49,280 nucleotides of DNA from an uncultured Ruminococcus sp. (GTDB lineage Bacteria; Bacillota; Clostridia; Oscillospirales; CAG-272). Positions 2,450 through 49,280 of the stretch are shown here, in pieces; positions within the stretch are counted from its first letter, which is position 1; the number at the start of each line of letters is the position of its first letter. The notes under the pieces were generated by a model, which was not told the DNA's origin, did not search any database, and worked only from the letters and a program-made list of their open reading frames with translations. Position numbers and translations under genes: made by a program. The DNA lies in assembly GCA_902761695.1 (NCBI GenBank), contig CACWLT010000001.1:1-49280 (forward strand), in the 5' to 3' direction.

Positions 2450-3127
2450 TTATTCTCTCCTTCCGTCTTCTCTTGCCGTGAGGATGCGCAGGGTTTCCGC
2501 GGCGTCACGGTGGCGCACCTGCCGGGGATCGAAGCGGACGACGGCGTAGACGGCCTGCATGACGGCTCCCGCGCCGAAGGTGGACAGGAGGGTGCCGAAG
2601 CCCACGGGTCCGCCCAGAAGCCAGCCGAGAAGCAGCGCCGCGCCCCAGAGCAGGATCTCCACCACGCCGATGGGAATCCGCGGCATACGCCTGCCCAGAC
2701 CCACCAGCAGGGAATCCCGGGGTCCGCAGCCCTGGCCCTCCCGCATATAGATCCACATGCCCAGGGCCATGAAGACGAAGCCCGCGAGCATCAGGGCCGC
2801 GCCGAGGAAGGGATTTTCATTCTCCGGGAAGGGATTGAGGTCGCTCCATAGCTGGACGAGGTTCCCGGTCAGAAGGGCGTCGATGACGGTGCCGAAGCCG
2901 ATGCGCTCCCCAAGAAGCAGGTCGATCCCCAGAATCAGCACGCTGACGGCGGTCATGGCGAGGCCGTAGTTCAGCGGGGTATGGAGGGCGATGCCCGTGC
3001 CGAGGCAGTCCCAGGGGGCAAGGCCGATATTGGCCCATATGGTCAGATGGACGCCGAAAGCAAAGACCGCGAGACCCGCCGCGATTTTCAGCCAGCCGGT
3101 CAGAATCCCCCGCCGCGTCACGGACAC
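2450..3127 (-). CDS. YczE/YitT-like integral membrane protein
   Basis: Only the C-terminal ~225 aa of ORF 2450..3466 look like protein, with several hydrophobic segments (KIAAGLAVFAFGVHLTIWANIGLAPWD...). GTG at 3127 (or 3121) directly follows GGGAGGGGAGGG. The N-terminal 113 aa of the track ORF are Pro/Arg-rich junk. Confidence 0.7.
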   Translation of the reverse strand: MSVTRRGILTGWLKIAAGLAVFAFGVHLTIWANIGLAPWDCLGTGIALHTPLNYGLAMTAVSVLILGIDLLLGERIGFGTVIDALLTGNLVQLWSDLNPFPENENPFLGAALMLAGFVFMALGMWIYMREGQGCGPRDSLLVGLGRRMPRIPIGVVEILLWGAALLLGWLLGGPVGFGTLLSTFGAGAVMQAVYAVVRFDPRQVRHRDAAETLRILTAREDGRRE

Positions 3128-7159: not shown

Positions 7160-7632
7160 TTCACAACCTCTGAAACTCCAATTATGACAAGACTTTCGAG
7201 GTAGTTATAGCCGCGGAATCGAACGTGCTGTTTCATCTGTCCTCTATCGCGCCTCGTGTCATGCGCGTTTCGATCGCTGTTTGCAGGTTACCAGCGCGAC
7301 TGCGTCGGCGCGGCAAACCGATGAACTTCGTCTCCGACGGAGTTCATCGCATGTTTCAGCTGACGCAGCGTGGTCCGCCGGAGTTGCGTCAGCAACTCCT
7401 GAAGAATGCAGAGCATTCTTCAGGCGAGGACTTGGGATATACAGTCGTTTTTCGATACAGTTGCGAGCTGTCAGGTTATGCTCTCCGGCCAAGGGGGACC
7501 CGCACGAGGGGCACCTTCGGCCTGAGATGGTGTCCCTCGTGCCTGCCCGTTGCATGACTGCGTCATGCGGCGTAGAGGACATTATTCCTGAAACGCGCAG
7601 CGTTTCTTTCCTCATAGTGTGAACACACTATG
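7160..7632 (+). ncRNA. Candidate structured RNA / hairpin-rich repeat element, copy A (family unidentified)
   Basis: Aligns with 45130-45540 (-) and 45600-45935 (+). It is a chain of hairpins with compensatory substitutions between copies (details in findings). It ends in hairpin GAAACGC-GCA-GCGTTTC (7590-7606) + TTTCC, then palindrome CATAGTGTG-AA-CACACTATG (7613-7632). A weak promoter-like ATGACA 7184-7189 / TATAGC 7206-7211 lies upstream. ORFs across it are not conserved between copies. Confidence 0.55.
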
Positions 7633-7652
7633 CTTCAGAAGCGAAAAGGCGC

Positions 7653-10136
<2,484 letters not shown>

Positions 10137-10156
10137 ATAGTACTCCTTCCGGAATA

Positions 10157-10380
10157 ATGCCCCTGCGCGGGGCAGGCGGCACAGGGGACACCCGTCCCGC
10201 GCAGGGACATATAATCCAGAAACCCGTAGGGTTTCCTTCCTTAATTCTGCCGACCGCAGTCGGCGTTCCCCTTTTCCTGAAGTTCTGCCTGAACTTCACC
10301 CTTCTCCGACGGAGCAGGAATGCTCCGTCGAGCAGTTTATAGCTGTTTGTTATACAGGCTATTATAAAAACGCGCGGGGG
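10157..10380 (-). repeat. Hairpin-rich element, copy D, inside the mcsB-clpC intergenic spacer
   Basis: Minus-strand 3' part ..CTGGATTATATGTCC..GGTGTCCCCTGTGCCGCCTGCCCCGCGCAGGGGCATTATTCC matches copies A/B/C (CAGGATTATGCTCC..GGTGTCCCTCCCCCGCGCCTGCCCCGCGTAGGGGCAT in B; CATTATTCC in A). The 5' part matches copy E. It runs straight into the clpC RBS (GGAAGGAG) and lacks the terminal hairpin and palindrome. Confidence 0.55.
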
Positions 10381-10507
10381 AGAGCCCTGTCCGAGACAGA
10401 GAACTCTTCCCCGCTTCCGTCCTGCGGAACAGCCTTATCCTATTTCGATCGCTCAATCCTTATTATAAACCGTCCCGGGCTGTTCCATGCCGATGTCGTC
10501 CTTTTTT

Positions 10508-11524
10508 TTATCTGCCGCCGTGCAGGCCTGCCGCGCTGAGAATGTCGCGGACGCGGACCGCTCTGGCCTTATCCGGATCCGCAGAGGCGTCTTTGCCCTC
10601 CACCGCCGCCAGGGTATGGGGCAGGCAGGTGAACATAGCCTCGTCCACCAGCGGAACCGCGATGTCCGCCAGATTCATCGCCGCCGCCATGCGCATCCGG
10701 GAGTAGAGGGAACAGAGCTCGCCGGCCCCCACTCTTCCCGCGTACATGAGCATTCCGTACCGGCGGCAGGCTTCCTCGCTCAGCTCCGCCCGTTCATCCT
10801 CGGTGAGAGCATCGCGGTATTCGCGCTCCTTCGCCGTCAGACGCTCGGCGGCCTCGGTGACGGTCTTGGCCAGCTCCTCCTCCGTCATGCCCATGGTCTC
10901 CCGGTTGGCGATGACATAGAGGCCGGTGTTAACCCGCCCGCCGTCCAGGGAACGGATGGAGATGCCCTCCTTCGCCATGCGGAACGCCGCCCGGTTGAGC
11001 CATCCGGATTCGCCGCAGAGGGGCAGATGCAGGGTCGCGCTGACCCGCAGGCCGGTGCCCAGCAGCTCCGGATTTCTGGTCACATACCCGATCTGATCCG
11101 CGTAGGCCACCGGGAAAGCCTCATCCAGCAGGGTCTCCGCCGCGAAGGCCTTCTCCAGCGCCGCCGGAAGATCGTTGCCCGGGGCCACGGCCTCGATCCG
11201 CACGTGATCGGTCCCGCCCACGGTCACCGCCACCGAGAAGTCCTCGTTCTGGAACACGGCGGCGGGATTCTTCTTCTCCGCAGTCTCCCGGGAGATGATC
11301 CGCTGCTCGGTCAGGGCCAGCTTCTGTTCCTCCCCGGCCTCCGTCAGATCCGTCATGGTCCAGCCGTTCTCCGCCCGGTAGACGGTCTTTATCTTTTCGA
11401 TAAGCTCTTTCGCCTGCTCCGCGGTCATTTTATCGGTAAAGGGATAATCCTCGAGATTTCTTGAGAGCGCCGCCCGCGCATTCAGCACAACGTCTCCGTC
11501 GCGTCCTTCAGTCTTGTACCACAT
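10508..11524 (-). CDS. mcsB: protein arginine kinase McsB (ATP:guanido phosphotransferase)
   Basis: ORF 10508..11575. ATG 11524 follows AAGGAG and clears the mcsA stop at 11572. N-terminus MWYKTEGRDGDVVLNARAALSRNLEDYPF. Operon position is between mcsA and clpC. Confidence 0.9.
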   Translation of the reverse strand: MWYKTEGRDGDVVLNARAALSRNLEDYPFTDKMTAEQAKELIEKIKTVYRAENGWTMTDLTEAGEEQKLALTEQRIISRETAEKKNPAAVFQNEDFSVAVTVGGTDHVRIEAVAPGNDLPAALEKAFAAETLLDEAFPVAYADQIGYVTRNPELLGTGLRVSATLHLPLCGESGWLNRAAFRMAKEGISIRSLDGGRVNTGLYVIANRETMGMTEEELAKTVTEAAERLTAKEREYRDALTEDERAELSEEACRRYGMLMYAGRVGAGELCSLYSRMRMAAAMNLADIAVPLVDEAMFTCLPHTLAAVEGKDASADPDKARAVRVRDILSAAGLHGGR

Positions 11525-11571
11525 AGTCTGCTCCTTTCGATTCTCCGTCCGTTTCACACTGTCCGCTCCGG

Positions 11572-12273
11572 TCATTCTGCCTGATCGCCGGCGGGCTTGT
11601 CTTCCTCATGCTTTTCTTCCGCTTCAACGGGTGCTTCGGCGGGGGCCTCCGTCTTTTCCGCCGCAGATCCCTCGATCACCGCCGACGCCTGCCGTTCCGC
11701 CTCTTCCTCGGCGCGGAGCTTCTTCAGCTCGTCCCGGATGGCGGCCGCCTTCTCAAAGTCCTCGTTGTTCACGGCCTCCCGCTGCTCCTCGATGAGGGCC
11801 TCCATGCGGCGCTTCCTCTCGATGCGGCTGCGGTACCGCGCGGGAGCCCGTCCCGTGTGAACCGCCTTTCCGTGAACCCGGCTCACCGTGGGCGCCAGCT
11901 CCTCGGCGAAGGTCTCGAAGCACTTCGGGCATCCCGCGCCTCTGGTGGCGAAATCCCGCAGGGTCGCGCCGCAGCCCGGGCAGGTCTTCTCATCCTTCTT
12001 TTCCCGTCCGGATCCGGAGCCCAGCGCCCGGTCCGTTCCGAAGAAGCCGTTCAGAAGGCCGTTCAGTGTCTTCATGGGCCTCTGCAGGAAGGGCTCGTCG
12101 AAGAAGGAGTCAAAATCGTCGAAGAACCGGTCCATCCGGAAGGAGGGCAGCTCGTCCGCCTCCTCCATCTTCTTGGCGCAGTCGGCACAGAGCCGATAGG
12201 TTTTCGTCCTTCCGTTCACGTTTTCGTGATAGTAGTAGGTCGCTTCATTCTTTCCGCATTTTTCGCACAGCAT
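11572..12273 (-). CDS. mcsA: McsA, zinc-finger activator of McsB (UvrB/UvrC-motif protein)
   Basis: MLCEKCGKNEATYYYHENVNGRTKTYRLCADCA plus a second CxxC pair (CPGCG...CPKC) and a C-terminal UVR-like motif (FEKAAAIRDELKKL). RBS GGAGGA. Confidence 0.9.
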   Translation of the reverse strand: MLCEKCGKNEATYYYHENVNGRTKTYRLCADCAKKMEEADELPSFRMDRFFDDFDSFFDEPFLQRPMKTLNGLLNGFFGTDRALGSGSGREKKDEKTCPGCGATLRDFATRGAGCPKCFETFAEELAPTVSRVHGKAVHTGRAPARYRSRIERKRRMEALIEEQREAVNNEDFEKAAAIRDELKKLRAEEEAERQASAVIEGSAAEKTEAPAEAPVEAEEKHEEDKPAGDQAE

Positions 12274-12462
12274 GTCCGTATCCTCCGATTATTGCTCCGC
12301 CAACTAACAAACAGTTGACTTAATTGGTATGCTTTCTCAATAAGGCAGTACCGTATTTGGTTCCGGCGGCTGATCCCCGGCAGCATAACTCTTGGTTTGC
12401 TGTCACAGTAATAATGTCTGTTGTTATCCGCAGTATATGCCGCTTTGTCCCCGCTTATGCCG

Positions 12463-12915
12463 TCACATCATGTAAATCATCAGCATCCGCCGGAACATGT
12501 CCGCACGGAGCGCGTCTCGCTTTTCCGCCGGGCAGGCGTCCAGGGCGGCCTCCGACATGGCCTGCATGGCCAGCTTGCCTTCCCGCTCCGTCATGATCCC
12601 GTGATCCGTGAGATTGCGCAGGTAGGCCGCCGCATCCGCCTCGCCGAGCCCCTTGCCCACCGCCTGGAAGAAGTGCATCAGATACTTGCTCCGGCTCATC
12701 TGCACCCGGACGATCCGGATACAGCCGCCGCCGCCCCGCCTGGAGTCCGTGACGTAGCCGCGCTCCGGGGTGAAGCGGGAGGTGATGACGTAGCTGATCT
12801 GGGAGGGAACGCATCCCAGCTTCTGGGCCATGTCGTTCCGCCGGACCTCAGCGCGTCCGCCGCCCTCCTCCAGCATTTTTTCGATCATGGCGGCTATGTG
12901 ATCTGATAGAACCAT
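12463..12915 (-). CDS. ctsR: CtsR, class III stress-gene repressor
   Basis: ORF 12463..12996. ATG 12915 follows GGAGGG. MVLSDHIAAMIEKMLEE...AQKLGCVPSQISYVITSRFTPERGYVTDSRRGGGGCIRIV is the CtsR signature. Confidence 0.9.
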   Translation of the reverse strand: MVLSDHIAAMIEKMLEEGGGRAEVRRNDMAQKLGCVPSQISYVITSRFTPERGYVTDSRRGGGGCIRIVRVQMSRSKYLMHFFQAVGKGLGEADAAAYLRNLTDHGIMTEREGKLAMQAMSEAALDACPAEKRDALRADMFRRMLMIYMM

Positions 12916-12953
12916 ACCGCCCTCCTTCCTGAAGGACAGCCTGTCTTTTTGAC

Positions 12954-12970
12954 TTTGACTTTCTTTGTCC
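12954..12970 (-). promoter_or_regulatory. CtsR operator (near-consensus tandem heptad) downstream of the ctsR promoter
   Basis: Minus strand reads GGACAAA-GAA-AGTCAAA, against the published consensus RGTCAAA-NAN-RGTCAAA (one mismatch). A further GTCAAA follows (12953..12948). It lies 15-35 nt downstream of the -10 box. Confidence 0.6.
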
Positions 12971-12984
12971 TTCGCTGTGCCCTT

Positions 12985-13013
12985 ATTATAGTCCAAAGGT
13001 CAGGCAAAGTCAA
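12985..13013 (-). promoter_or_regulatory. sigmaA promoter of the ctsR-mcsA-mcsB-clpC operon
   Basis: Minus strand: -35 TTGACT (13013..13008), exact 17-nt spacer, -10 TATAAT (12990..12985). Confidence 0.7.
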
Positions 13014-39476: not shown

Positions 39477-39548
39477 GGCGACATAGCCAAGCGGTAAGGC
39501 AGAGGTCTGCAAAACCTTCATTCTCCAGTTCGATTCTGGATGTCGCCT
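39477..39548 (+). tRNA. tRNA-Cys (anticodon GCA)
   Basis: Acceptor GGCGACA/TGTCGCC, D arm GCC-AAGCGGTAA-GGC, anticodon loop CTGCAAA, T arm TCCAG-TTCGATT-CTGGA. CCA is not encoded. Confidence 0.9.
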
Positions 39549-41356: not shown

Positions 41357-41428
41357 GCTGGTGTGGCTCAATGGCAGAGCAGCTGATTTGTAATCAGCAG
41401 GTTGTTGGTTCGACTCCGATCACCAGCT
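41357..41428 (+). tRNA. tRNA-Thr (anticodon TGT)
   Basis: Acceptor GCTGGTG/CACCAGC, D arm GCTC-AATGGCA-GAGC, anticodon arm GCTGA-TTTGTAA-TCAGC, T loop TTCGACT. Confidence 0.9.
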
Positions 41429-41465: not shown

Positions 41466-41547
41466 GGGGGAATTCCCGAGTGGCCAAAGGGGACAGACTG
41501 TAAATCTGCTGGCACCGCCTTCGGTGGTTCGAATCCACCTTCCCCCA
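41466..41547 (+). tRNA. tRNA-Tyr (anticodon GTA), long variable arm
   Basis: Acceptor GGGGGAA/TTCCCCC, anticodon loop CTGTAAA, variable arm GGCACCGCC, T arm GGTGG-TTCGAAT-CCACC. Confidence 0.9.
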
Positions 41548-42550: not shown

Positions 42551-45103
42551 TCAGTTCCCTTCCTCCTCCGCCAGAGGGACCGCGCCCTCCAGCATATCGG
42601 TCTCCGAAATCCGGCCGTCCTTCAGAAGGAACGTGCGGATGGCGAAGGGCTCGAAGTCGGCGTCGAAGGCCAATCCGGCGGCAGGCAGATCGACGTGGGC
42701 TTTCACGGCGATCCCCTGGGCCTCGTAAAGCCGGAGGATCCAGGCGTCCCCGTCCCGCTCGCTCCGCTTGAAGCAGGAGAGAACGACATTTTCCACATCG
42801 ATCGTGCAGAGGGGCGCGGGCTTCTCCCCGTCTCCCGAAGGACAGAAGGCGAATCCGTAGGGCGTCCGGTTCCACATGGCCGCCTCACGATCCACATTTT
42901 TGAAGCGCTCCTCCCGTTCGCCGCCGGTGAGACGGAAACGGTACCGCCGTTCGCCCTGATCCATTCGCTGCTGGTACATGGGCTCGTGGAAGGGCTCTCC
43001 CCAGGCGGACCGGCCGGAACCGTAGCCGGCGGACCGGAGCAGGGTCACCCGGAGCACGCCGTCTGAAAAGTCAGAACCGTAAACGCCGTCGTCCAGCACG
43101 GTCAAAGCGCGCTCCTCATCGGCGACGGCCTGCCAGTACTGAGAGAAGGTGTCCTCTCCGCGGCTGCCCGGGGTGAGCTTTTCCCGCCCGAACATGGTCA
43201 TGCCGAAATGACCGCTGTTTTCAAGCGCCGTGGGGATCCGCAGCTTCAGCCGCTTCTCGTTCTCCGCCCAGAAGACCCGGACCTCTATGTCAAGGGCCCC
43301 CGAGATTTTGCCGACGATATACCGCACCAAGGCCCGGGAACCGCCGTATTTCATGTCGGCCTCGATGACCGTTTCGACCTCTCCCTCCTCCACGGCGCGG
43401 ACGGGGGAGACGATCTGTCCCTTGACGCCGGAGAAGTCCGTGGCCTCGCCGGGAGTCATGAGGGTGAAGCGGCCCTCGGGATAGCGGAGATCCAGCTCCG
43501 GATGGCCGTCCCAGCAGGAAATGGCGTCCCGGAAGACCTCCAGGGACAGCGCCCCGGGTTTCAGATACTCGGTCCCGTCCACAACATAGGAATCGACAAG
43601 TCCCGTGCGGGTGTTGACAACCACCTGTCCCCGGGCGGTATCCACCGTCAGAAGATTGCGCCGCTCCCATTTCTCCCGGCCTTCCCATCGCTCCCGGTTC
43701 GCCTGCTCCACCGTGGGGGCGGGACGGGCGGGGATGGTCTCGAACTTCACGTCGAAGCGGGTGACGGAGAAGGGAGAGAGCGGGTGCTCGATGATGATCC
43801 GCTTGCACCAGTCCATGTAGAAGTTGCCGCTCTCCTTCGCCTGCTGGCAGGGCACCCTGACGCCGTCCATATACGCGATGGGATTGGAGAAGTCCTTGTG
43901 CCACATCTGCCGGGGCAAAAGGAACTCCACGTCCACGGGCTGGGTATAGGGGAACGGATGGGGATTGTACAGAAGGATCGGCACCGTGTCCCCGTCGGAA
44001 ACCGGCTCCTGTCCGGCACACAGGGCCAGGAAGTACTTCGATTTCAGCTTGTTCGTGATCTCCAGGCCGTGGTGGAGCATCCGGATCACGTCCTCCTCCA
44101 CGGGCTGGATGCAGGAGCCGGGCAGGGAGTCGTGGAACTCCGCAAAGAGAAGATCCCGCCAGGCGTCGTCCAGCTTCTCCTTCTCATAGACGGACAGCCC
44201 GCTGAGCGCCGCGTGGGACGCCATGGCCTCCGTCATGCAGAGGTCGTTCTCCAGCCTCCGGTGCAGCTGCTTGATCCGGATGATGGACGTGTAGCAGCCC
44301 TCCATCAGGTGGTTCAGCCCCCGGTTGACCACGGGCAGGGACGCCCGGTCGACGGTTTTGAAATAGTCGTCCGGGGTGGAGTGGACGAGGTCGGCGCCGG
44401 ACGCACGCAGAGCCGCGATGTCGTCCAGATCCTTCCGGGAGGGGCCGCCGCCGTGATTGCCCACCCCCCAGAGATAGAGGGCGTTTTCCTCGTTCTCATG
44501 GCGCTTCAGCCAGCCGGGACGATCCTCCGTGCCCGAGAGCTCCTCCGCCGCCTGCCCGAGGACGGAGTTATACCCCTTGTCGGAGCGGTGGACCAGGATC
44601 TCCGATCCGTCGTACCCGGTCCAGAGGAAGTCCTCGTTCGGGAAGTCGTAGTTCCCCCGGCCCGGGCGGATGTTGACGTAGTGCCGATAGCCGCACTGAC
44701 GGAGCACCTGCACCAGCCCCCGGGCGTGTCCGAAGGAATCCACGTTCACCGCCGTCACGGGGACCTCGCCGAATTTGTCGTAAAAATAGATTCGCCCTCT
44801 GAGGATCTGCCGCACGATGGACTCCCCCGCCGGGATGTTGCAGTCCGGCTGCAGGAACCATCCGCCGACGATCTTCCACCGGCCGGACTTCACCTGCTCC
44901 CGGATCTTTTCAAAGAGGGCGGGCTCGTGCTCCTCCACCCATTCGTAGAGGAGGGATTCGTTGTGGTTGAAGATGAAATCGGGGTATTCGTCGATTAGGC
45001 GCGCGGCGGAGCGGAAGGTGGAAATGGCCTCGCTCATGCCGCTCTCCCACTGCCAGAGCCACACGGGATCCAGGTGGGCGTTGCAGAACATATAGGTTTT
45101 CAT
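42551..45103 (-). CDS. alpha-mannosidase, glycoside hydrolase family 38
   Basis: 850 aa with RBS GGAGG. N-terminus CNAHLDPVWLWQWESG....GGWFLQPDCNIP is typical of GH38. No signal peptide. Confidence 0.9.
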   Translation of the reverse strand: MKTYMFCNAHLDPVWLWQWESGMSEAISTFRSAARLIDEYPDFIFNHNESLLYEWVEEHEPALFEKIREQVKSGRWKIVGGWFLQPDCNIPAGESIVRQILRGRIYFYDKFGEVPVTAVNVDSFGHARGLVQVLRQCGYRHYVNIRPGRGNYDFPNEDFLWTGYDGSEILVHRSDKGYNSVLGQAAEELSGTEDRPGWLKRHENEENALYLWGVGNHGGGPSRKDLDDIAALRASGADLVHSTPDDYFKTVDRASLPVVNRGLNHLMEGCYTSIIRIKQLHRRLENDLCMTEAMASHAALSGLSVYEKEKLDDAWRDLLFAEFHDSLPGSCIQPVEEDVIRMLHHGLEITNKLKSKYFLALCAGQEPVSDGDTVPILLYNPHPFPYTQPVDVEFLLPRQMWHKDFSNPIAYMDGVRVPCQQAKESGNFYMDWCKRIIIEHPLSPFSVTRFDVKFETIPARPAPTVEQANRERWEGREKWERRNLLTVDTARGQVVVNTRTGLVDSYVVDGTEYLKPGALSLEVFRDAISCWDGHPELDLRYPEGRFTLMTPGEATDFSGVKGQIVSPVRAVEEGEVETVIEADMKYGGSRALVRYIVGKISGALDIEVRVFWAENEKRLKLRIPTALENSGHFGMTMFGREKLTPGSRGEDTFSQYWQAVADEERALTVLDDGVYGSDFSDGVLRVTLLRSAGYGSGRSAWGEPFHEPMYQQRMDQGERRYRFRLTGGEREERFKNVDREAAMWNRTPYGFAFCPSGDGEKPAPLCTIDVENVVLSCFKRSERDGDAWILRLYEAQGIAVKAHVDLPAAGLAFDADFEPFAIRTFLLKDGRISETDMLEGAVPLAEEEGN

Positions 45104-45129
45104 AGATGCCTCCGGTGTTTCCGGTACCT

Positions 45130-45540
45130 CCGGATCGTAATGATAGTGTGTTCACACTATTAAGGAAAGAAAACTTTCCTTCGCATAAGGAAACAAACGC
45201 TGCGCGTTTGGAAACGGTTTATGCCCCTACGCGGGGCAGGCGCGGGGGAGGGACACCATCTCAGGCCGAAGGTGCCCCTCCCCCGAGGGTCCCCCTTGGC
45301 CGAGGAGCATAATCCTGGCTACCCATATCTGAATCGAAAATCGATTGTACATCCCATGTCCACGCACGGAGAATGCAAAGCATTCTCCTGGAGTTGCTTT
45401 GCAACTCCAGCGGACCACGGTGCGTCAGCTGAAACATACGTGAAACTACGTCAAGGACGCAGTTTCACGGTTTCCTGCGCCGACGCAGTCGCGCTGGAGC
45501 CTCGGAAACAGCGATCGAAGCGCGCATTGGGCAAGGTGCT
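45130..45540 (-). ncRNA. Candidate structured RNA / hairpin-rich repeat element, copy B
   Basis: The reverse complement aligns with copy A over its whole length. Big stem-loop at 45244-45284, terminal hairpin at 45194-45210, palindrome ATAGTGTG-TT-CACACTAT at 45143-45160. There is an extra ~27-nt insertion (45161-45190) duplicating the CTTTCCT region. The 3' end lies about 30 nt upstream of the GH38 start codon on the same strand. Confidence 0.55.
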
Positions 45541-45599
45541 GGACTTTGAACTTCGCTGTTCTATTCAAAGACAGATTTGAATTCGCGAGGCTGAACTAT

Positions 45600-45935
45600 C
45601 AGTCTCATCTTTTCTCCTTCGCGACCGTGTAATGCGCGTTTCGATCGCTGTTTGCGTCGCCGGCCCGGCAGAGCAAACCGATGAACTTCGTCCCCGACGG
45701 AGTTCATCGCATGTTTCAACTGTACTAACACAGTCCGCGCGAGGACATGAGATACACAATCGATTTTCGATTCAGCTACGAGCTGTCAGGTTATGCCATA
45801 CGGCCAAGGAAACCCCCGCACGGGGGGAAACCTTCGGCCTGAGATGGTGTCCCCCCGTGCCTCCCGCCCTGAGCAAGGGCATTCAATTTGAAACGCGCAG
45901 CGTTTCTTTCCTTTTCGTGTGAACCCACTATAGTA
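45600..45935 (+). ncRNA. Candidate structured RNA / hairpin-rich repeat element, copy C (about 60-nt internal deletion)
   Basis: Aligns with copy A. Stems at 45650-45655/45673-45678, 45680-45687/45701-45708 and 45818-45832/45846-45860, terminal hairpin at 45890-45906, degenerate palindrome at 45916-45933. It lacks the two hairpins found at 7380-7424 in A. It is divergent (head-to-head) with copy B. Confidence 0.55.
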
Positions 45936-47069
45936 TCAGTCCTTCAGAAGTTCGCAGACCATCTCCAGGTTCTTTATGATCTCCAGATGCTGGGGACATT
46001 TGCTCTCGCAGGCGCCGCAGCCGATGCAGTCGTCAAAGGTCTTGCCGCCGTGGCGCACGTAGTCCCGCCACATGTTCTTCGCGTGCTCCTTCAGGCCGTA
46101 GACATTGTAATAGGTGTACATCTCGAAGATCCGGGGGATGTCGATGTCCATGGTGCAGGGCTGGCAGTAGCGGCACCCGGTGCAGTAGAGCTCGGAGAAC
46201 TTTTTGATCTCCTCCATGGCGCGGCCCAGCTGTTCCCATTCCTCCGCGGAGAAGGCCGTGTCGTCGGAGGCCACCTTCACGTTCTTCTGCACCATGTCCA
46301 GGGTCTGCATGCCGGAGAGAGCGCAGCAGAGGTCCGGATTGCCCAGGCAGAACTTGAAGGCCAGCTCGTAGGTGGCGATGGATTCCTTGCCGGTCAGCTT
46401 GGCGTAGAGATCGGTGGGAGCCGCCAGCCGTCCGCCGCCCACGGGCCCCATGGCCACGGTGCCCAGTCCCTTTTCGTGGACGTACTTCATCATCTCCTCG
46501 TTGGAGCGGTCCAGCAGGTTGTACTGGCAGAGCATGGACTCCATGGGGATGCCCCTGGCCTCGGCGGTGTCCGCGATGTACTTTATGGCCGACGGATGGT
46601 CGTGGAAGGAGAAGGAGATATGGCGGATCAGCCCTTCCTCCTTAGCCTTCGCCGCCTCCTCCAGCAGGCCCTCTCCCAGGATCAGATCGTCGAACACGCC
46701 CCGGCTGATGCCCCAGAAGTGGTAAAAATCGATGTGGTCGGTCCCCAGCTGCGTCAGGCTGGATTCCAGGCGGCGGCGGTATCCTTCCCTGCCCATGCCC
46801 TTGTCCATGGGACATTTTGTGGAGATGAGGATCCTGTCCCGGAAGTCCTTCACGGCCTTGCCCAGAGCGGCCTCGCTGTGCTGGCTGCAGTAGCCGGGCG
46901 CCGTGTCGAAGTAGTTGACGCCGTTGTCGCAGGCATAGCGGATCATCTCGTCCACCTTGTCCTGATCCACCAGCATGCCGTCGCCCTCCTTATATTCGGG
47001 GAAGCGCATGCAGCCGAAGCCCAGGGCGGATATCTTCTCGCCGGTCTTGCCGAATTCGCGGTAGTTCAT
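45936..47069 (-). CDS. aldo/keto reductase with C-terminal 4Fe-4S ferredoxin-type cluster motifs
   Basis: 377 aa. The AKR N-terminus is REFGKTGEKISALGFGCMRF...YFDTAPGY. The C-terminus has CTGCRYCQPC and CIGCGACESKCP. Confidence 0.85.
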   Translation of the reverse strand: MNYREFGKTGEKISALGFGCMRFPEYKEGDGMLVDQDKVDEMIRYACDNGVNYFDTAPGYCSQHSEAALGKAVKDFRDRILISTKCPMDKGMGREGYRRRLESSLTQLGTDHIDFYHFWGISRGVFDDLILGEGLLEEAAKAKEEGLIRHISFSFHDHPSAIKYIADTAEARGIPMESMLCQYNLLDRSNEEMMKYVHEKGLGTVAMGPVGGGRLAAPTDLYAKLTGKESIATYELAFKFCLGNPDLCCALSGMQTLDMVQKNVKVASDDTAFSAEEWEQLGRAMEEIKKFSELYCTGCRYCQPCTMDIDIPRIFEMYTYYNVYGLKEHAKNMWRDYVRHGGKTFDDCIGCGACESKCPQHLEIIKNLEMVCELLKD

Positions 47070-47210
47070 ACTGTATTCCTTTCTTACATAATAGTCTCAA
47101 AAAAACGCGTTGATCCATAATACACTATTTTTAAGGATTTGTCAAGGCTTTTGCAAAATCGTATTACCCGTCAGGGACCGTTTATTCCCGCCCGGTTTGA
47201 TAAAATCGTC

Positions 47211-47239
47211 TTGCGCCGGGGGAGCGGATATGGTATAAT
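47211..47239 (+). promoter_or_regulatory. sigmaA promoter of the acetyltransferase gene
   Basis: -35 TTGCGC 47211-47216, 17-nt spacer, -10 TATAAT 47234-47239. Confidence 0.5.
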
Positions 47240-47309
47240 GACTGAAAAACCCGCCCGTCCGGGAGACGAAAACCGGACCGGTCCCGAAAGAGCGGAAGGG
47301 AGGACGGTC

Positions 47310-47810
47310 ATGCTGTCCGTTCAGATCAAAAAAGCAGAGCGCAAGGATATCGACGGGATCCTTTCGATTTACAACGAAGAGGTGGAAAACGGCATCGCCA
47401 CTCTGGCCACGGAGCCCATGACCCCGGAGGACGGGATGCGCTGGCTGGCGGAGCACGAAGGAGGAAACCGCTGCGCCTTTGTCGCTGTTCTCGACGGGCA
47501 GGTGGTCGGGTATGTCTCCCTGTCCCGCTTCTCCCCCCGGGGCGGATACGACAGAACGGCGGAGCTGTCCATCTACGTAGCCAAACCGTTCCGCGGACAG
47601 GGGATAGCCGGCCAGCTGATGGCATTCATCCTCCGCCGGGCCGAAGCGGATCCCGCCGCCCACGCCGTGGTCTCCATCATCACTGCCGACAACACCGCCA
47701 GCCGGAACCTGCACGAGAAGTTCGGCTTCCGTCACATCGGCAGGCTGAAGGAGGCCGGGTGGAAATTCGGCATCGCCCTGGACGTGGACTATTACGAACG
47801 GATGGTGTGA
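47310..47810 (+). CDS. GNAT family N-acetyltransferase (phosphinothricin-acetyltransferase-like)
   Basis: ORF 47139..47810. ATG 47310 follows GGGAGGA. IYNEEVENGIATLATEPMT...RGQGIAGQLM...NTASRNLHEKFGFRHIG. Confidence 0.8.
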   Translation: MLSVQIKKAERKDIDGILSIYNEEVENGIATLATEPMTPEDGMRWLAEHEGGNRCAFVAVLDGQVVGYVSLSRFSPRGGYDRTAELSIYVAKPFRGQGIAGQLMAFILRRAEADPAAHAVVSIITADNTASRNLHEKFGFRHIGRLKEAGWKFGIALDVDYYERMV

Positions 47811-47837
47811 ACGGAACCGGGAAATCCGCAAAAGGGC

Positions 47838-47866: not shown

Positions 47867-47948
47867 GTTATAAATAGTACGCTATCTTCGCATTGTTTAT
47901 CCGGCGACGGATCATCCCGGGATCATCCCGACTGATAAGGAGCACCAC

Positions 47949-48965
47949 ATGAGCTATCAGCAGTACGTACCCTATACTCCGGACGCGGGCCGCTACGACG
48001 GCAGAATGCCCTACCGCAGATGCGGCAAGAGCGGATTGAAGCTCCCCGCCATCTCCCTCGGCCTCTGGCACAACTTCGGCGACATCACCCCCTTCGGCGT
48101 CCAGCAGGGGATTCTGCGCGCGGCATTCGACTGCGGCATCACCCACTTTGACCTGGCCAACAACTACGGCCCGCCCTACGGGGAGGCGGAGCGCAACTTC
48201 GGCGAGCACATGAAGCGCGACTGGAAGCCCTTCCGGGACGAGCTGGTGATTTCCACGAAGGCGGGCTACGACATGTGGAAGGGCCCCTACGGCAACGACG
48301 GATCGCGGAAATACCTCATTGCCTCCATCGACCAGTCCCTGAAACGGATGAACCTCGACTACGTGGACATCTTCTACCATCACCGCCCGGACGACGGCAC
48401 CCCCATCGAGGAGACCATGGGCGCGCTTTACGACATCGTGAAGAGCGGCAAGGCCCTGTATGCCGGGATCTCCAACTATAACCCGGAGCAAACCAAAAAG
48501 GCCGTCGCCTGCATGAAGGAGATGGGCATGCACATGCTGATCCATCAGCCCAACTACTCCATGTTCAACCGCTCCATCGAGCACGGTCTCACCGACGTGT
48601 GCCGGGAAGAGGGTGTCGGGATCATGGCGTTCGGGCCTCTCGCGGGCGGCAAGCTGACCGGACGGTACCTGAACGGCATCCCCGCTGATTCGAGAGCCGG
48701 TCATGACCCGCGCTTCCTCCGTCCCTCCGACATCAACGAGCAGCTGCTCGCCACCGTCCGGAAGCTCAACGAGATCGCCGTGGCCCGCGGGCAGTCCCTG
48801 GCGCAGCTGGCCCTGGTCTGGGCGCTGAGACTTCCCGAGGTCACCTCCGTCCTCATCGGCGCGTCCCGGGCGGAGCAGGTCCGGGAGAACGCGAAGGCCC
48901 TTGAGAACATGACCCTCACCGACGAAGAGCTGGCCGCCGTCGACGCGGTGCTGGCAAATCGATAA
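47949..48965 (+). CDS. aldo/keto reductase, YghZ/L-glyceraldehyde-3-phosphate-reductase-like
   Basis: 338 aa with RBS AAGGAG. YRRCGKSGLKLPAISLGLWHNFG...FDLANNYGPPYGEAE. Confidence 0.85.
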   Translation: MSYQQYVPYTPDAGRYDGRMPYRRCGKSGLKLPAISLGLWHNFGDITPFGVQQGILRAAFDCGITHFDLANNYGPPYGEAERNFGEHMKRDWKPFRDELVISTKAGYDMWKGPYGNDGSRKYLIASIDQSLKRMNLDYVDIFYHHRPDDGTPIEETMGALYDIVKSGKALYAGISNYNPEQTKKAVACMKEMGMHMLIHQPNYSMFNRSIEHGLTDVCREEGVGIMAFGPLAGGKLTGRYLNGIPADSRAGHDPRFLRPSDINEQLLATVRKLNEIAVARGQSLAQLALVWALRLPEVTSVLIGASRAEQVRENAKALENMTLTDEELAAVDAVLANR

Positions 48966-48989
48966 AGCAGACCGACCGCGCCTTCCCGC

Positions 48990-49040
48990 AAAAAACCTCC
49001 CGGCATCCTGCACCCAATGCGGATTCCGGGAGGTTTTATT
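48990..49040. terminator. Bidirectional terminator
   Basis: AAAAA-ACCTCCCGG (48995-49003) pairs with CCGGGAGGT (49026-49034), followed by TTTATT. Confidence 0.6.
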
Positions 49041-49082
49041 ATGGCGGACATGGATTCCCCTGCCTGCGGGACGGTTTATTTC

Positions 49083-49280
49083 AGTACTCAATCCCTCGTC
49101 TGGCGGCGATCCCGCGGTCGAAGGGGTGCTTTTCCTTGCGCATTTCCGTGGCGTAATCGGCCAGCTCCGTCAGCTCCGGTGCGGGATCCCTTCCGGTCAG
49201 CACGATCTCGCGCCGCTCCCCTTCCGTCCGAAGAAAATGCAGCACTGCCTCCCGGTCCAGGGCGCCGTACGCATAGGAGG
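49083..49280 (-). CDS. cobO: cob(I)yrinic acid a,c-diamide adenosyltransferase (CobO/BtuR type), C-terminal part; 5' end outside the window
   Basis: Reverse-strand translation ...SYAYGALDREAVLHFLRTEGERREIVLTGRDPAPELTELADYATEMRKEKHPFDRGIAARRGIEY* matches the conserved CobO C-terminus (TGR...ADxVTEM...KHP...G..AR.GIE). Confidence 0.7.

Follow-up and report, generated by a model that had tools for sequence, protein, structure and literature searches.

Structured, interspersed intergenic repeats with the character of miniature inverted-repeat transposable elements (MITEs) are known from several groups of bacteria, namely the Correia elements of Neisseria, ERIC/IRU in the enterobacteria, BOX and RUP in the pneumococcus and bcr in the Bacillus cereus group. 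In REPINs, two REP sequences, simple palindromes of about 20-40 nt, form an inverted doublet whose copies pair mutually and which is mobilised by RAYT transposases. Here we analyse a 794-nt block at positions 45142-45935 of a 49,280-nt stretch of DNA from an uncultured Ruminococcus sp. (contig CACWLT010000001.1), referred to in its full length as the window. The block consists of two outward-facing copies, B and C, of a non-coding element of about 330-470 nt, and it lies between the genes for a GH38 alpha-mannosidase and an aldo/keto reductase (AKR). The reading that we favour, with a probability of roughly 0.55, is that it represents a head-to-head dimer from a family of structured non-coding elements of mobile origin in rumen Oscillospiraceae, that its arms are transcribed outward and that the dimer moves as a unit.

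The family shares with the Correia, ERIC, BOX and bcr elements its non-coding, intergenic nature, tens of copies per genome, an occurrence in either orientation relative to genes, a mosaic or modular make-up, insertions that are polymorphic among strains and stable folds predicted for the case of transcription. It differs from them in being two to four times larger, in a fold of more than ten helices with invariant loops, a candidate pseudoknot and compensatory changes, in the lack of a target-site duplication (TSD) and of universal terminal inverted repeats (TIRs), and in having an obligatorily head-to-head dimer form. With REPINs it has in common the inverted doublet as a mobile or persistent unit, the additional presence of single copies, long-lived vertical inheritance and again the absence of a TSD, but its arms measure about 350 nt, are about 75% alike and each contain an internal multi-helix fold that appears to be under selection. 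Palindrome-associated transposable elements (PATEs) of the IS200/IS605 type and the omega-RNA/HEARO group are likewise multi-copy elements devoid of an open reading frame (ORF), with a strand-specific structure, a terminal hairpin near the 3' end and no TSD, and in the omega-RNA/HEARO-type transposon RNAs an ornate RNA-like domain also adjoins the element end. The present family, in contrast to PATEs and omega-RNA, has no target motif, no Rfam match, variable terminal hairpins within a genome and no linked tnpA, tnpB or iscB.

Among the large structured RNAs, ROOL, GOLLD, OLE and raiA resemble the element in a length of several hundred nucleotides, many helices, strong covariation and a biochemical function yet to be assigned. 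Unlike these, the family shows no covariance-model similarity to any of them, occurs in far more copies per genome, displays insertion polymorphism and dimers, and gives no sign of high RNA abundance. ROOL was first seen in rumen metagenomes (PMC5737381, PMC12286853); it is represented in Rfam, and its model does not match the family. No Rfam gathering-threshold match was obtained for HEARO, group I or group II introns, ribozymes, ROOL, GOLLD, OLE or raiA. Invertons, finally, are like the block in that a segment bounded by short inverted repeats is found in both orientations in natural populations; unlike them, the block has no recombinase nearby and no demonstrated promoter, and its flip is nearly symmetrical, as the segment consists of two homologous elements. 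We file the family as a variant of the interspersed structured-repeat kind that departs from each known class in at least one defining test.

Architecture of the B/C block

A preliminary description of this DNA had placed an inverted repeat between GH38 and an AKR gene, and both the repeat (by repeat search, blastn and nhmmer) and, as evidenced by their Pfam domains, the two flanking genes are indeed present. Collinear inverted segments of the arms are found at 45187-45209/45891-45913 (96%), 45221-45312/45791-45882 (71%), 45314-45370/45734-45790 (81%) and 45503-45528/45631-45656 (92%). By blastn and nhmmer, both arms belong to a single kind of element; B is read from the minus strand and C from the plus strand, with their 3' ends outward, in agreement with the earlier view that they point away from each other. 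A further copy was placed by blastn at about 7230-7631. A family profile (nhmmer) built from full-length relatives detects B, C and a single copy elsewhere in the window, A, with E values of 1e-69 to 1e-88 (Table 1). B and C are about 75% identical and differ in their leaders and modules, and a three-way alignment with A has a mean column identity of 73% with long invariant blocks.

Several details required correction. The 5' regions of B and C had been described as 60-90 bp apart; the gap between their ATGCGCG edges (45527 to 45521 in B, 45632-45638 in C) measures 104 nt and is made up of the beta leader of B and the alpha leader of C. What had been taken for a 27-nt duplication in B is an optional hairpin module, TTTCCTTATGCGAAGGAAAG plus a second TTTCTTTCCTT, that is shared with another family member, and the supposed deletion of about 60 nt in C reflects the fact that C represents the compact majority form of the family; the two optional extra hairpins in A and B are carried by a minority of family copies only. 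B does end upstream of GH38 on the same strand, at a distance of about 40 nt from the ATG (45103) rather than about 30 nt. On the opposite side, the tail of C overlaps the AKR stop codon (45936-45938).

The B/C arrangement is not an assembly artefact. A 150-nt contig of the metagenome X1 spans the dimer centre, 45507-45656, with 0 mismatches, the centre is also covered in X3, and both outer junctions of the block are spanned by independent rumen metagenome contigs.

Table 1. Coordinates of the dimer block, its parts and flanking genes, and of further family members in the window.
Feature	Position	Strand	Basis
Whole head-to-head dimer block	45142..45935	.	insertion relative to empty-site strains (X1, X33 contigs)
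Terminal hairpin of B, sense ATAGTGTG-AA-CACACTAT	45143..45160	-	sequence; also ends A, L009, L114, L116, L061
Optional extra 3' hairpin module of B (TTTCCTTATGCGAAGGAAAG + repeated TTTCTTTCCTT)	45161..45187	-	alignments; X1 variant of A-like copy
Left 11-nt perfect inverted repeat AAGGAAAGAAA, inversion crossover site	45162..45172	.	junctions in X2, X3, X4
Copy B core (5' domain closed by GCGCG/CGCGC, then 3' domain)	45188..45527	-	nhmmer model 1-280, E=3.7e-69
Beta-type 5' leader of B, with palindrome ATTCAAA-N6-TTTGAAT	45528..45583	-	homology: L055, L104, L117, L061, L058 beta leaders
Alpha-type 5' leader of C (CGCGAGG...CTCCTTCGCG...GTGTA)	45584..45631	+	homology: alpha leaders of A and >25 other copies
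Copy C core (compact majority form)	45632..45912	+	nhmmer model 1-280, E=6.1e-88
Right 11-nt inverted repeat TTTCTTTCCTT, crossover site; also 3' strand of GAGGA/UUCCU closing helix	45903..45913	.	
Terminal hairpin of C (CGTGTGAACCCACTATAG) with AGTATCAG tail, overlapping AKR stop codon	45916..45939	+	sequence; tail consensus from other copies
GH38 alpha-mannosidase gene (flank)	42551..45103	-	Pfam Glyco_hydro_38N, Alpha-mann_mid, Glyco_hydro_38C
AKR gene with 4Fe-4S domain (flank)	45936..47069	-	Pfam Aldo_ket_red, Fer4 families
Copy A, single full-length element	7179..7647	+	repeat depth span; nhmmer E=1.4e-69
Degenerate head-to-head remnant between mcsB and clpC	10150..10330	.	nhmmer match 10187-10242 + sequence reading

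Presence, absence and inversion of the block

The preliminary description had proposed to look for empty sites in relatives, and contigs that lack both copies exist. In a bovine-metagenome contig (X1), position 45125 is joined to 45936 via 15 nt that align to 45126-45141, and in a contig of a more distant relative (X33) position 45103 is joined to 45935 via 23 nt. The 794-nt block is gained or lost whole, both terminal hairpins included, and its place is between the AKR stop codon and the GH38 ribosome-binding site. As only 25-40 nt separate the AKR stop from the GH38 start in the empty-site strains, the two genes form one operon there, with AKR upstream.

Inversion or instability across the repeat had been suggested as a second point to check, and an inversion was found in contigs of three sheep metagenomes from different samples (X2, X3 and X4). 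On the GH38 side the contig follows the window up to 45172, where it passes into 45901-45886 in reverse complement, and on the AKR side 45903 is joined to 45173. These two junctions are those of an inversion of 45173-45902. Its crossover falls within the perfect 11-nt inverted repeat AAGGAAAGAAA/TTTCTTTCCTT, the motif conserved at the 3' edge of the element. Both orientations occur in X4; the bovine run shows that of the window. At the dimer of locus L055 no inversion junction was seen, but the contigs break at the 24-nt terminal repeat there.

A smaller rearrangement was observed at this latter locus. In its minus-strand arm, the 3' hairpin (L055 3828-3844) has a flipped loop that reads GCTTCGC in the sense direction, where the family has GCGAAGC or GCGCAGC; the canonical loop is found in other strains of the runs X16 and X48. 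The flip is a minor inversion mediated by a palindrome, such as template switching produces.

The head-to-head dimer as a unit

Among neighbouring copies that lie less than 300 nt apart, 22 are arranged head-to-head, while 0 are in tandem and 0 tail-to-tail, and about one third of the family copies sit in dimers. The spacer contains no separate sequence and consists of two leaders in direct contact, an alpha leader from one arm and a beta leader from the other. It is homologous among the dimers of the window, of the loci L055 and L016 and of SIG615, a metagenome-assembled genome (MAG). As near-identical dimer spacers occur at separate loci of one genome and the L055 dimer has unrelated genes beside it, the dimer has spread, or persisted, as a unit.

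A conserved fold

RNAalifold predicted 55 pairs from 19 full-length copies, and 20 of the 55 carry compensatory double changes. The 5' GCGCG pairs with an internal CGCGC to close the variable 5' domain, and it is because of this pairing that both alternative 5' modules keep the two motifs. The pairing of the 3' domain was assessed in 63 diverse sequences with a mean column identity of 63%, with 500 shuffles and sliding controls. Standard pairs make up 98.0% of the pair cells, compared with 90.7% in the shuffled data, and the observed value was reached in 0 of 500 shuffles; sliding the 3' partners by 1-3 columns lowered the paired cells to 40-60%. Changes on both sides of a pair were found in 123 cells, with 36 expected. 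The 3' TTCCT tail pairs with an internal GAGGA in 100% of the sequences. A candidate pseudoknot that joins GGCC in columns 71-74 to the invariant loop, at its GGCC in columns 122-125, is paired in 63/63 cases; in 3 sequences it shows a G-C to A-U double change, and these same 3 are the only ones in which the competing local hairpin is broken.

The fold is strand-specific and maintained by compensatory change on one strand only. About 99 G-U cells were counted versus about 13 A-C cells, and for each of the copies A, B and C the sense strand exceeds the antisense strand in stability, by 8-24 kcal/mol. With copies that have diverged to a median identity of 66% (see below), the retention of 98% of pairs implies selection on the fold rather than neutral decay after a recent burst, since the pairs were kept despite deep divergence.

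The view of the locus as a large snap-back or cruciform-prone repeat holds in one respect: a single strand that runs across both copies favours the snap-back, an imperfect duplex of about 270 bp, with -468 kcal/mol versus -336 kcal/mol for two separate folds. The structure that seems to be selected, however, is the fold within each copy. We also considered the 3' hairpin GAAACGCGCAGCGUUUC with the following UUUCCUU as an intrinsic terminator and rejected it, as the U-rich tail pairs with GAGGA in all sequences; the terminator-like hairpin and tail more likely belong to the closing helix.

Anatomy of the element

In the alignments, the element reads from 5' to 3' as a leader, a variable 5' domain, a conserved 3' domain of about 190 nt, a terminal hairpin and a tail. 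The leaders fall into three types, alpha, beta and gamma, and are followed by the invariant motif ATGCGCG and by a 5' module that exists in two alternative versions and may carry extra hairpins. CGCGCGAGGAC stands between the 5' module and the 3' domain, which is closed by GAGGA/UUCCU. Inside this domain are a long central hairpin, whose loop CCUUCGGCCUGAGAUGG is invariant, the candidate pseudoknot and two more hairpins. A hairpin GAAACGCGNAGCGTTTC and then TTTCCTY precede the terminal hairpin. The latter is always present and variable in sequence (ATAGTGTGAACACACTAT in the window), also among subfamilies within one genome, and the short tail behind it is AGTATCAG in many copies. A co-varying, TIR-like complementarity of the 5' and 3' ends exists in three subfamilies, and a 5' hairpin similar to the terminal one at the 3' end in some subfamilies only; dimers carry inverted ends by construction.

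Solo terminal modules were observed at L035 433-457, L137 79-103 and L070 ~3066-3090 (minus strand), where a hairpin CCCCTTAG(T/A)AGGG followed by ATTTAGTATCAG is located at orthologous ATP-synthase loci of different assemblies. Since these modules occur without the element core, the end module can exist, or persist, alone. Many copies of SIG615 (3' flanks of L001, L009, L014, L019 and L020) extend past the terminal hairpin with repeated hairpin modules, as in TTAATCCAATCCGCAAATGCGAAGCGTTTGC, a repetition of the 3' hairpin in its CAAATGCGAAGCATTTG variant; the 3' end of the element is modular and can grow in tandem.

Size, distribution and novelty of the family

An exact 21-mer of the most conserved loop was found at 28 loci in only 3 species-representative genomes, all of them rumen-type Oscillospiraceae/Ruminococcus MAGs. 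After enlargement by a degenerate two-block pattern search of metagenome contigs, followed by a filter with the family profile, the collection comprises 134 copies in 92 loci, chiefly from rumen metagenomes, and at least 36 copies were detected in SIG615. In four rumen metagenomes, including cattle and sheep, the k-mer depth of the conserved blocks is 600-1300 versus about 10 in single-copy flanks, a ratio of 60-100x. As evidenced by indels that are not multiples of three and by hairpin covariation the family is non-coding, and ORFs across copies are broken by hairpin indels in relatives. The 29 complete 3' domains of SIG615 have a median pairwise identity of 66% and a maximum of 87%, which bears out, within one genome, the previous notion that copies evolve independently.

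A search of Rfam with the window and 16 other loci returned no family at gathering or permissive thresholds, and at E <= 10 only chance-level matches to eukaryotic miRNA or lncRNA. In the literature, searched also with the motifs as literal sequence strings, nothing resembling the family was found, and these structured elements are a previously undescribed family. A phage or viral origin was rejected, as neither family motif had a match in a viral contig collection.

Neighbouring genes, promoters and mobility genes

The genes next to copies are unrelated to each other (clpC, atp genes, AKR, membrane proteins). When naive ORFs were used, the downstream gene was on the same strand as the element in 23 cases and on the opposite strand in 22. 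With gene calls filtered by third-position GC content, single copies between co-directional genes are sense in 16 and antisense in 15 cases, and 5 others lie between convergent and 3 between divergent genes; the earlier statement that the family is not consistently a 5' leader is thus confirmed. Note that long antisense ORFs, such as those at 47868-49091 (-), 47142-47831 (-) and 45888-47120 (+), are frequent in the DNA of the window, which has 62% GC, and that they misled the neighbour statistics until the filter was applied.

Sigma70-like matches of at least 8/12 are enriched just upstream of alpha leaders, with 27% of single copies versus 6% of positional controls and, in dimers, 13% versus 1%, and the -35/-10 pairs end within a few nucleotides of the leader start. 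A consensus scan of the B-C spacer yielded no canonical sigma70 promoter. In contigs from RNA runs, the conserved blocks are present at about the same enrichment as in DNA runs. A divergent pair of transcription units, as had been considered for this locus, agrees with the outward orientation of B and C, but their spacer consists of their own leaders, and among the dimers with both flanks resolved 0/12 lie between divergent genes (filtered calls). A divergent promoter cassette that serves the flanking genes is unlikely.

An autonomous insertion sequence (IS) with the same ends as the family was searched for in 148 loci, and none was found. A transposase in L035 (ORF with DUF772, homologues named IS5 family transposase) was assessed as an autonomous partner and rejected. 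The L035 terminus is identical to the family hairpin plus AGTATCAG and lies about 190 nt from the start codon of the IS5 ORF. A complete IS in L151, with the TIR GGAAATGCTGATTAAA/TTTATTCAGCGGTTCC and a TTAG duplication, puts the IS boundary about 110 nt short of this terminus, and the DNA in between is the atpB-atpE intergenic region that is also present in L116 and L017. For this reason, the IS in L035 is regarded as an unrelated insertion beside a solo terminal module; its ends (GGAACCACTGAATAAA) differ from those of the family. This IS (L035 1-~330, minus strand; L151 ~1030-2250) has an N-terminal DUF772 ORF and then a DDE_Tnp_1 ORF, apparently in two frames, and the TIR GGAA(A/C)(T/C)(G/A)CTGA(T/A)TAAA, and its L035 copy, within the atpB-atpE intergenic region, is cut by the contig end. 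In this same region (L116 ~2335-2545; L017 ~7190-7400) we observed a conserved sequence of about 200 nt that ends with the hairpin GGCTTCTTTCAAGAAGCC and a T-rich run; it has no Rfam match at E <= 0.01, including the cyanobacterial ATPC motif.

Two further candidates were discarded. A recurrent protein of about 520 amino acids beside copies has no family matches and most likely represents a chance reading frame, antisense and spurious, in DNA of high GC content, and a 1-kb stretch that is about 90% identical between the window and L008/L023, considered as a mobile unit, is the conserved plus-strand aldo/keto reductase gene.

Proposed mechanism and alternatives

In the mechanism that we propose, the folded form would be an RNA copied from the sense strand, with its start within the leader or shortly before it. 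In a dimer, both arms would be transcribed outward, and neither transcript would ever include the partner arm, by which the much more stable arm-to-arm snap-back would be avoided. Outward transcription would also explain why dimers are exclusively head-to-head, as a strand that spans both arms snaps back and loses the selected fold. The elements would be mobile in origin and moved by a trans-acting factor that acts on the terminal hairpin and tail. A dimer displays the same hairpin and tail at each boundary, and such a factor could move, excise or invert the pair whole; that each boundary then presents a terminal hairpin/tail end is a second proposed reason for the exclusive head-to-head arrangement. 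The fold would be under continuing selection in individual copies, with the RNA serving either the element or the host, and the element would not specifically regulate GH38.

A number of observations weigh against this proposal. With regard to transcription, most of the promoter-like matches are weak, and the RNA runs consist of unstranded contigs, in which transcription start, strand and transcript end are not observable. The RNA/DNA depth ratio of the element is 0.005-0.010, and 0 in a second run, not above that of clpC in the same sample, and its signal in the RNA runs could be DNA carry-over. G-T pairs are tolerated in single-stranded DNA as well, and strand asymmetry alone is no proof of RNA. 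With regard to mobility, no transposase, recombinase or nuclease domain was found by Pfam among the scanned ORFs of the window, and none of these three kinds recurs beside copies in 148 loci, nor does any other protein family. Near-identical copies within a genome, the absence of which is unusual for an active mobile element, were not found, with the caveat that MAG assembly tends to lose near-identical repeats. TIRs are present in 9/52 copies family-wide versus 6.8% of controls (Mann-Whitney p=0.125), no fixed-length TSD is seen in 12 well-defined copies or in the comparison of the filled and empty site of the window, and there is no conserved target motif, the 5' flanks having no motif in common.

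If the proposal is correct, the elements are among the most abundant uncharacterised structured non-coding elements of the rumen habitat, with a depth of 60-100x and an occurrence in cattle, sheep and goat metagenomes. They would merge two classes that are usually separate, interspersed mobile repeats and large tertiary-structured RNAs, and would provide a tractable case for the questions why dozens of copies have kept a fold while diverging and by what route a head-to-head dimer turns into a persistent unit. On the practical side, the family breaks MAG assemblies, with many copies located at the ends of contigs, it makes strains differ structurally within operons that encode glycan-degrading enzymes, as with the insertion and inversion at AKR-GH38, and it yields long spurious ORFs that automatic annotation may call genes.

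Possible, if doubtful, is a more far-reaching version in which the family constitutes a new class of ornate, pseudoknotted RNA of about 350 nt, present per genome in dozens of copies that have diverged yet keep their structure, mostly arranged as divergent gene pairs. Its partner protein, for example a recombinase, a transposase or an RNA-guided enzyme, would also act on the terminal hairpin and on TTTCTTTCCTT, and the RNA together with its DNA ends would make up a self-contained mobile or invertible system that resembles no known IS, MITE, REPIN or omega-RNA system.

We consider it rather unlikely that the family descends from a single-stranded-DNA transposon, as a PATE of the IS200/IS605 type, possibly with an omega-RNA-like scaffold, whose hairpins serve a Y1 transposase and whose 3' domain is the guide scaffold of a TnpB/IscB-like nuclease encoded elsewhere. 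Much of the anatomy would suit such an origin, from the many copies without ORF or TSD and the strand-specific fold with its tolerance for G-T/G-U pairs to the 3' hairpin with a tail of about 8-11 nt and the ornate 3' domain that, with its candidate pseudoknot, adjoins the element end. The 5' flank, however, has no conserved target motif of 4-5 nt, Rfam gives no match to the HEARO or IS605-orfB RNA models, and neither tnpA, tnpB nor iscB adjoins any of the 134 copies. In addition, terminal hairpins that differ among subfamilies in one genome would need several transposase specificities, and the head-to-head dimer is without counterpart in the IS200/IS605 family.

A further alternative is a purely selfish MITE or foldback element at the DNA level, in which hairpins would be by-products of palindrome-rich DNA without RNA function and the dimer a composite transposon with identical outer ends. 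Retention of 98% of pairs at 66% median identity, with G-U far in excess of A-C, is unexpected for neutrally decaying palindromes of double-stranded DNA. The invariant loops and the candidate pseudoknot also weigh against it. Such an element would account for a dispersed, non-coding and insertion-polymorphic family, for the TIR-like complementarity that co-varies in three subfamilies and for the identical ends that a dimer turns outward, but there is neither a TSD nor an autonomous partner, the sole transposase found being the unrelated IS5-family insertion in L035, and the TIR signal is not significant across the family. We regard this explanation as unlikely.

The inversion itself could be the work of a programmed inverton, in which a site-specific recombinase would invert the 730 nt enclosed by the 11-nt repeats and so alter transcription into GH38. 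Both orientations exist and coexist in one sample, and the crossover lies in the short perfect edge repeat and not in the identical tract of 24 nt, which is longer and located within the arms. The flip, however, merely swaps two homologous arms, and a regulatory effect is not evident; no recombinase gene is found among the scanned ORFs of the 49-kb window, and the L055 dimer shows no inversion junction, though the contigs there break at the repeat. Coexistence in X4 could equally reflect two strains, and a microhomology of 11 nt also fits template switching, events of which kind do occur, as seen from the flipped loop at L055. An inverton is in our view quite improbable.

It is very improbable that B is a cis-regulatory 5' leader or riboswitch of GH38, with C as an incidental neighbour. 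The preliminary description had allowed for a leader of about 400 nt on the grounds that B is on the GH38 strand and ends shortly upstream of the start codon. This proposal is not upheld, because the orientation of family members relative to neighbouring genes is random, both with naive (23 versus 22) and with filtered calls (16 versus 15); moreover, the genes beside copies are functionally unrelated, and the block is an insertion, relatives having GH38 in an AKR-GH38 operon without the element.

Misassembly can create inverted repeats, but a single copy falsely duplicated in inverted orientation is a practically negligible explanation for arms that are about 75% identical with different leaders and modules, whose centre and outer junctions are crossed by independent contigs and whose architecture recurs 21 more times in other assemblies.

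Other copies and genes in the window

Copy A has its alpha leader at 7212-7260, its core at 7261-7612 and its terminal hairpin at 7614-7631, followed by the tail. A promoter scan found a sigma70-like motif ATGACA-16-TATAGC at 7184-7211, and the fold z-score is -7.6 for the sense versus -6.15 for the antisense strand. The degenerate remnant that lies between mcsB and clpC retains one piece on the minus strand (10150-10192) and a 3' piece on the plus strand (10193-~10330) and has lost both 5' halves. The minus-strand piece, from the 3' domain, stops 14 nt short of the clpC ribosome-binding site, and the plus-strand piece contains the last hairpins together with two more whose homologues lie in the 3' flank of the L026 copy. 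Both family members are associated with a stress operon on the minus strand at 7653-12996, in the order ctsR, a gene at 11572-12273, an mcsB-like gene (ATP:guanido phosphotransferase) and clpC; copy A lies at its 3' end, and the remnant inside it, in the gap between mcsB and clpC.

Three ordinary tRNA genes on the plus strand, at 39477-39548, 41357-41428 and 41466-41547 (Rfam 52-68 bits), are unrelated to the element. Beyond the AKR gene that flanks the block, the real genes of the window include a GNAT acetyltransferase at 47139-47810 (+) and an AKR resembling L-glyceraldehyde-3-phosphate reductase at 47949-48965 (+).

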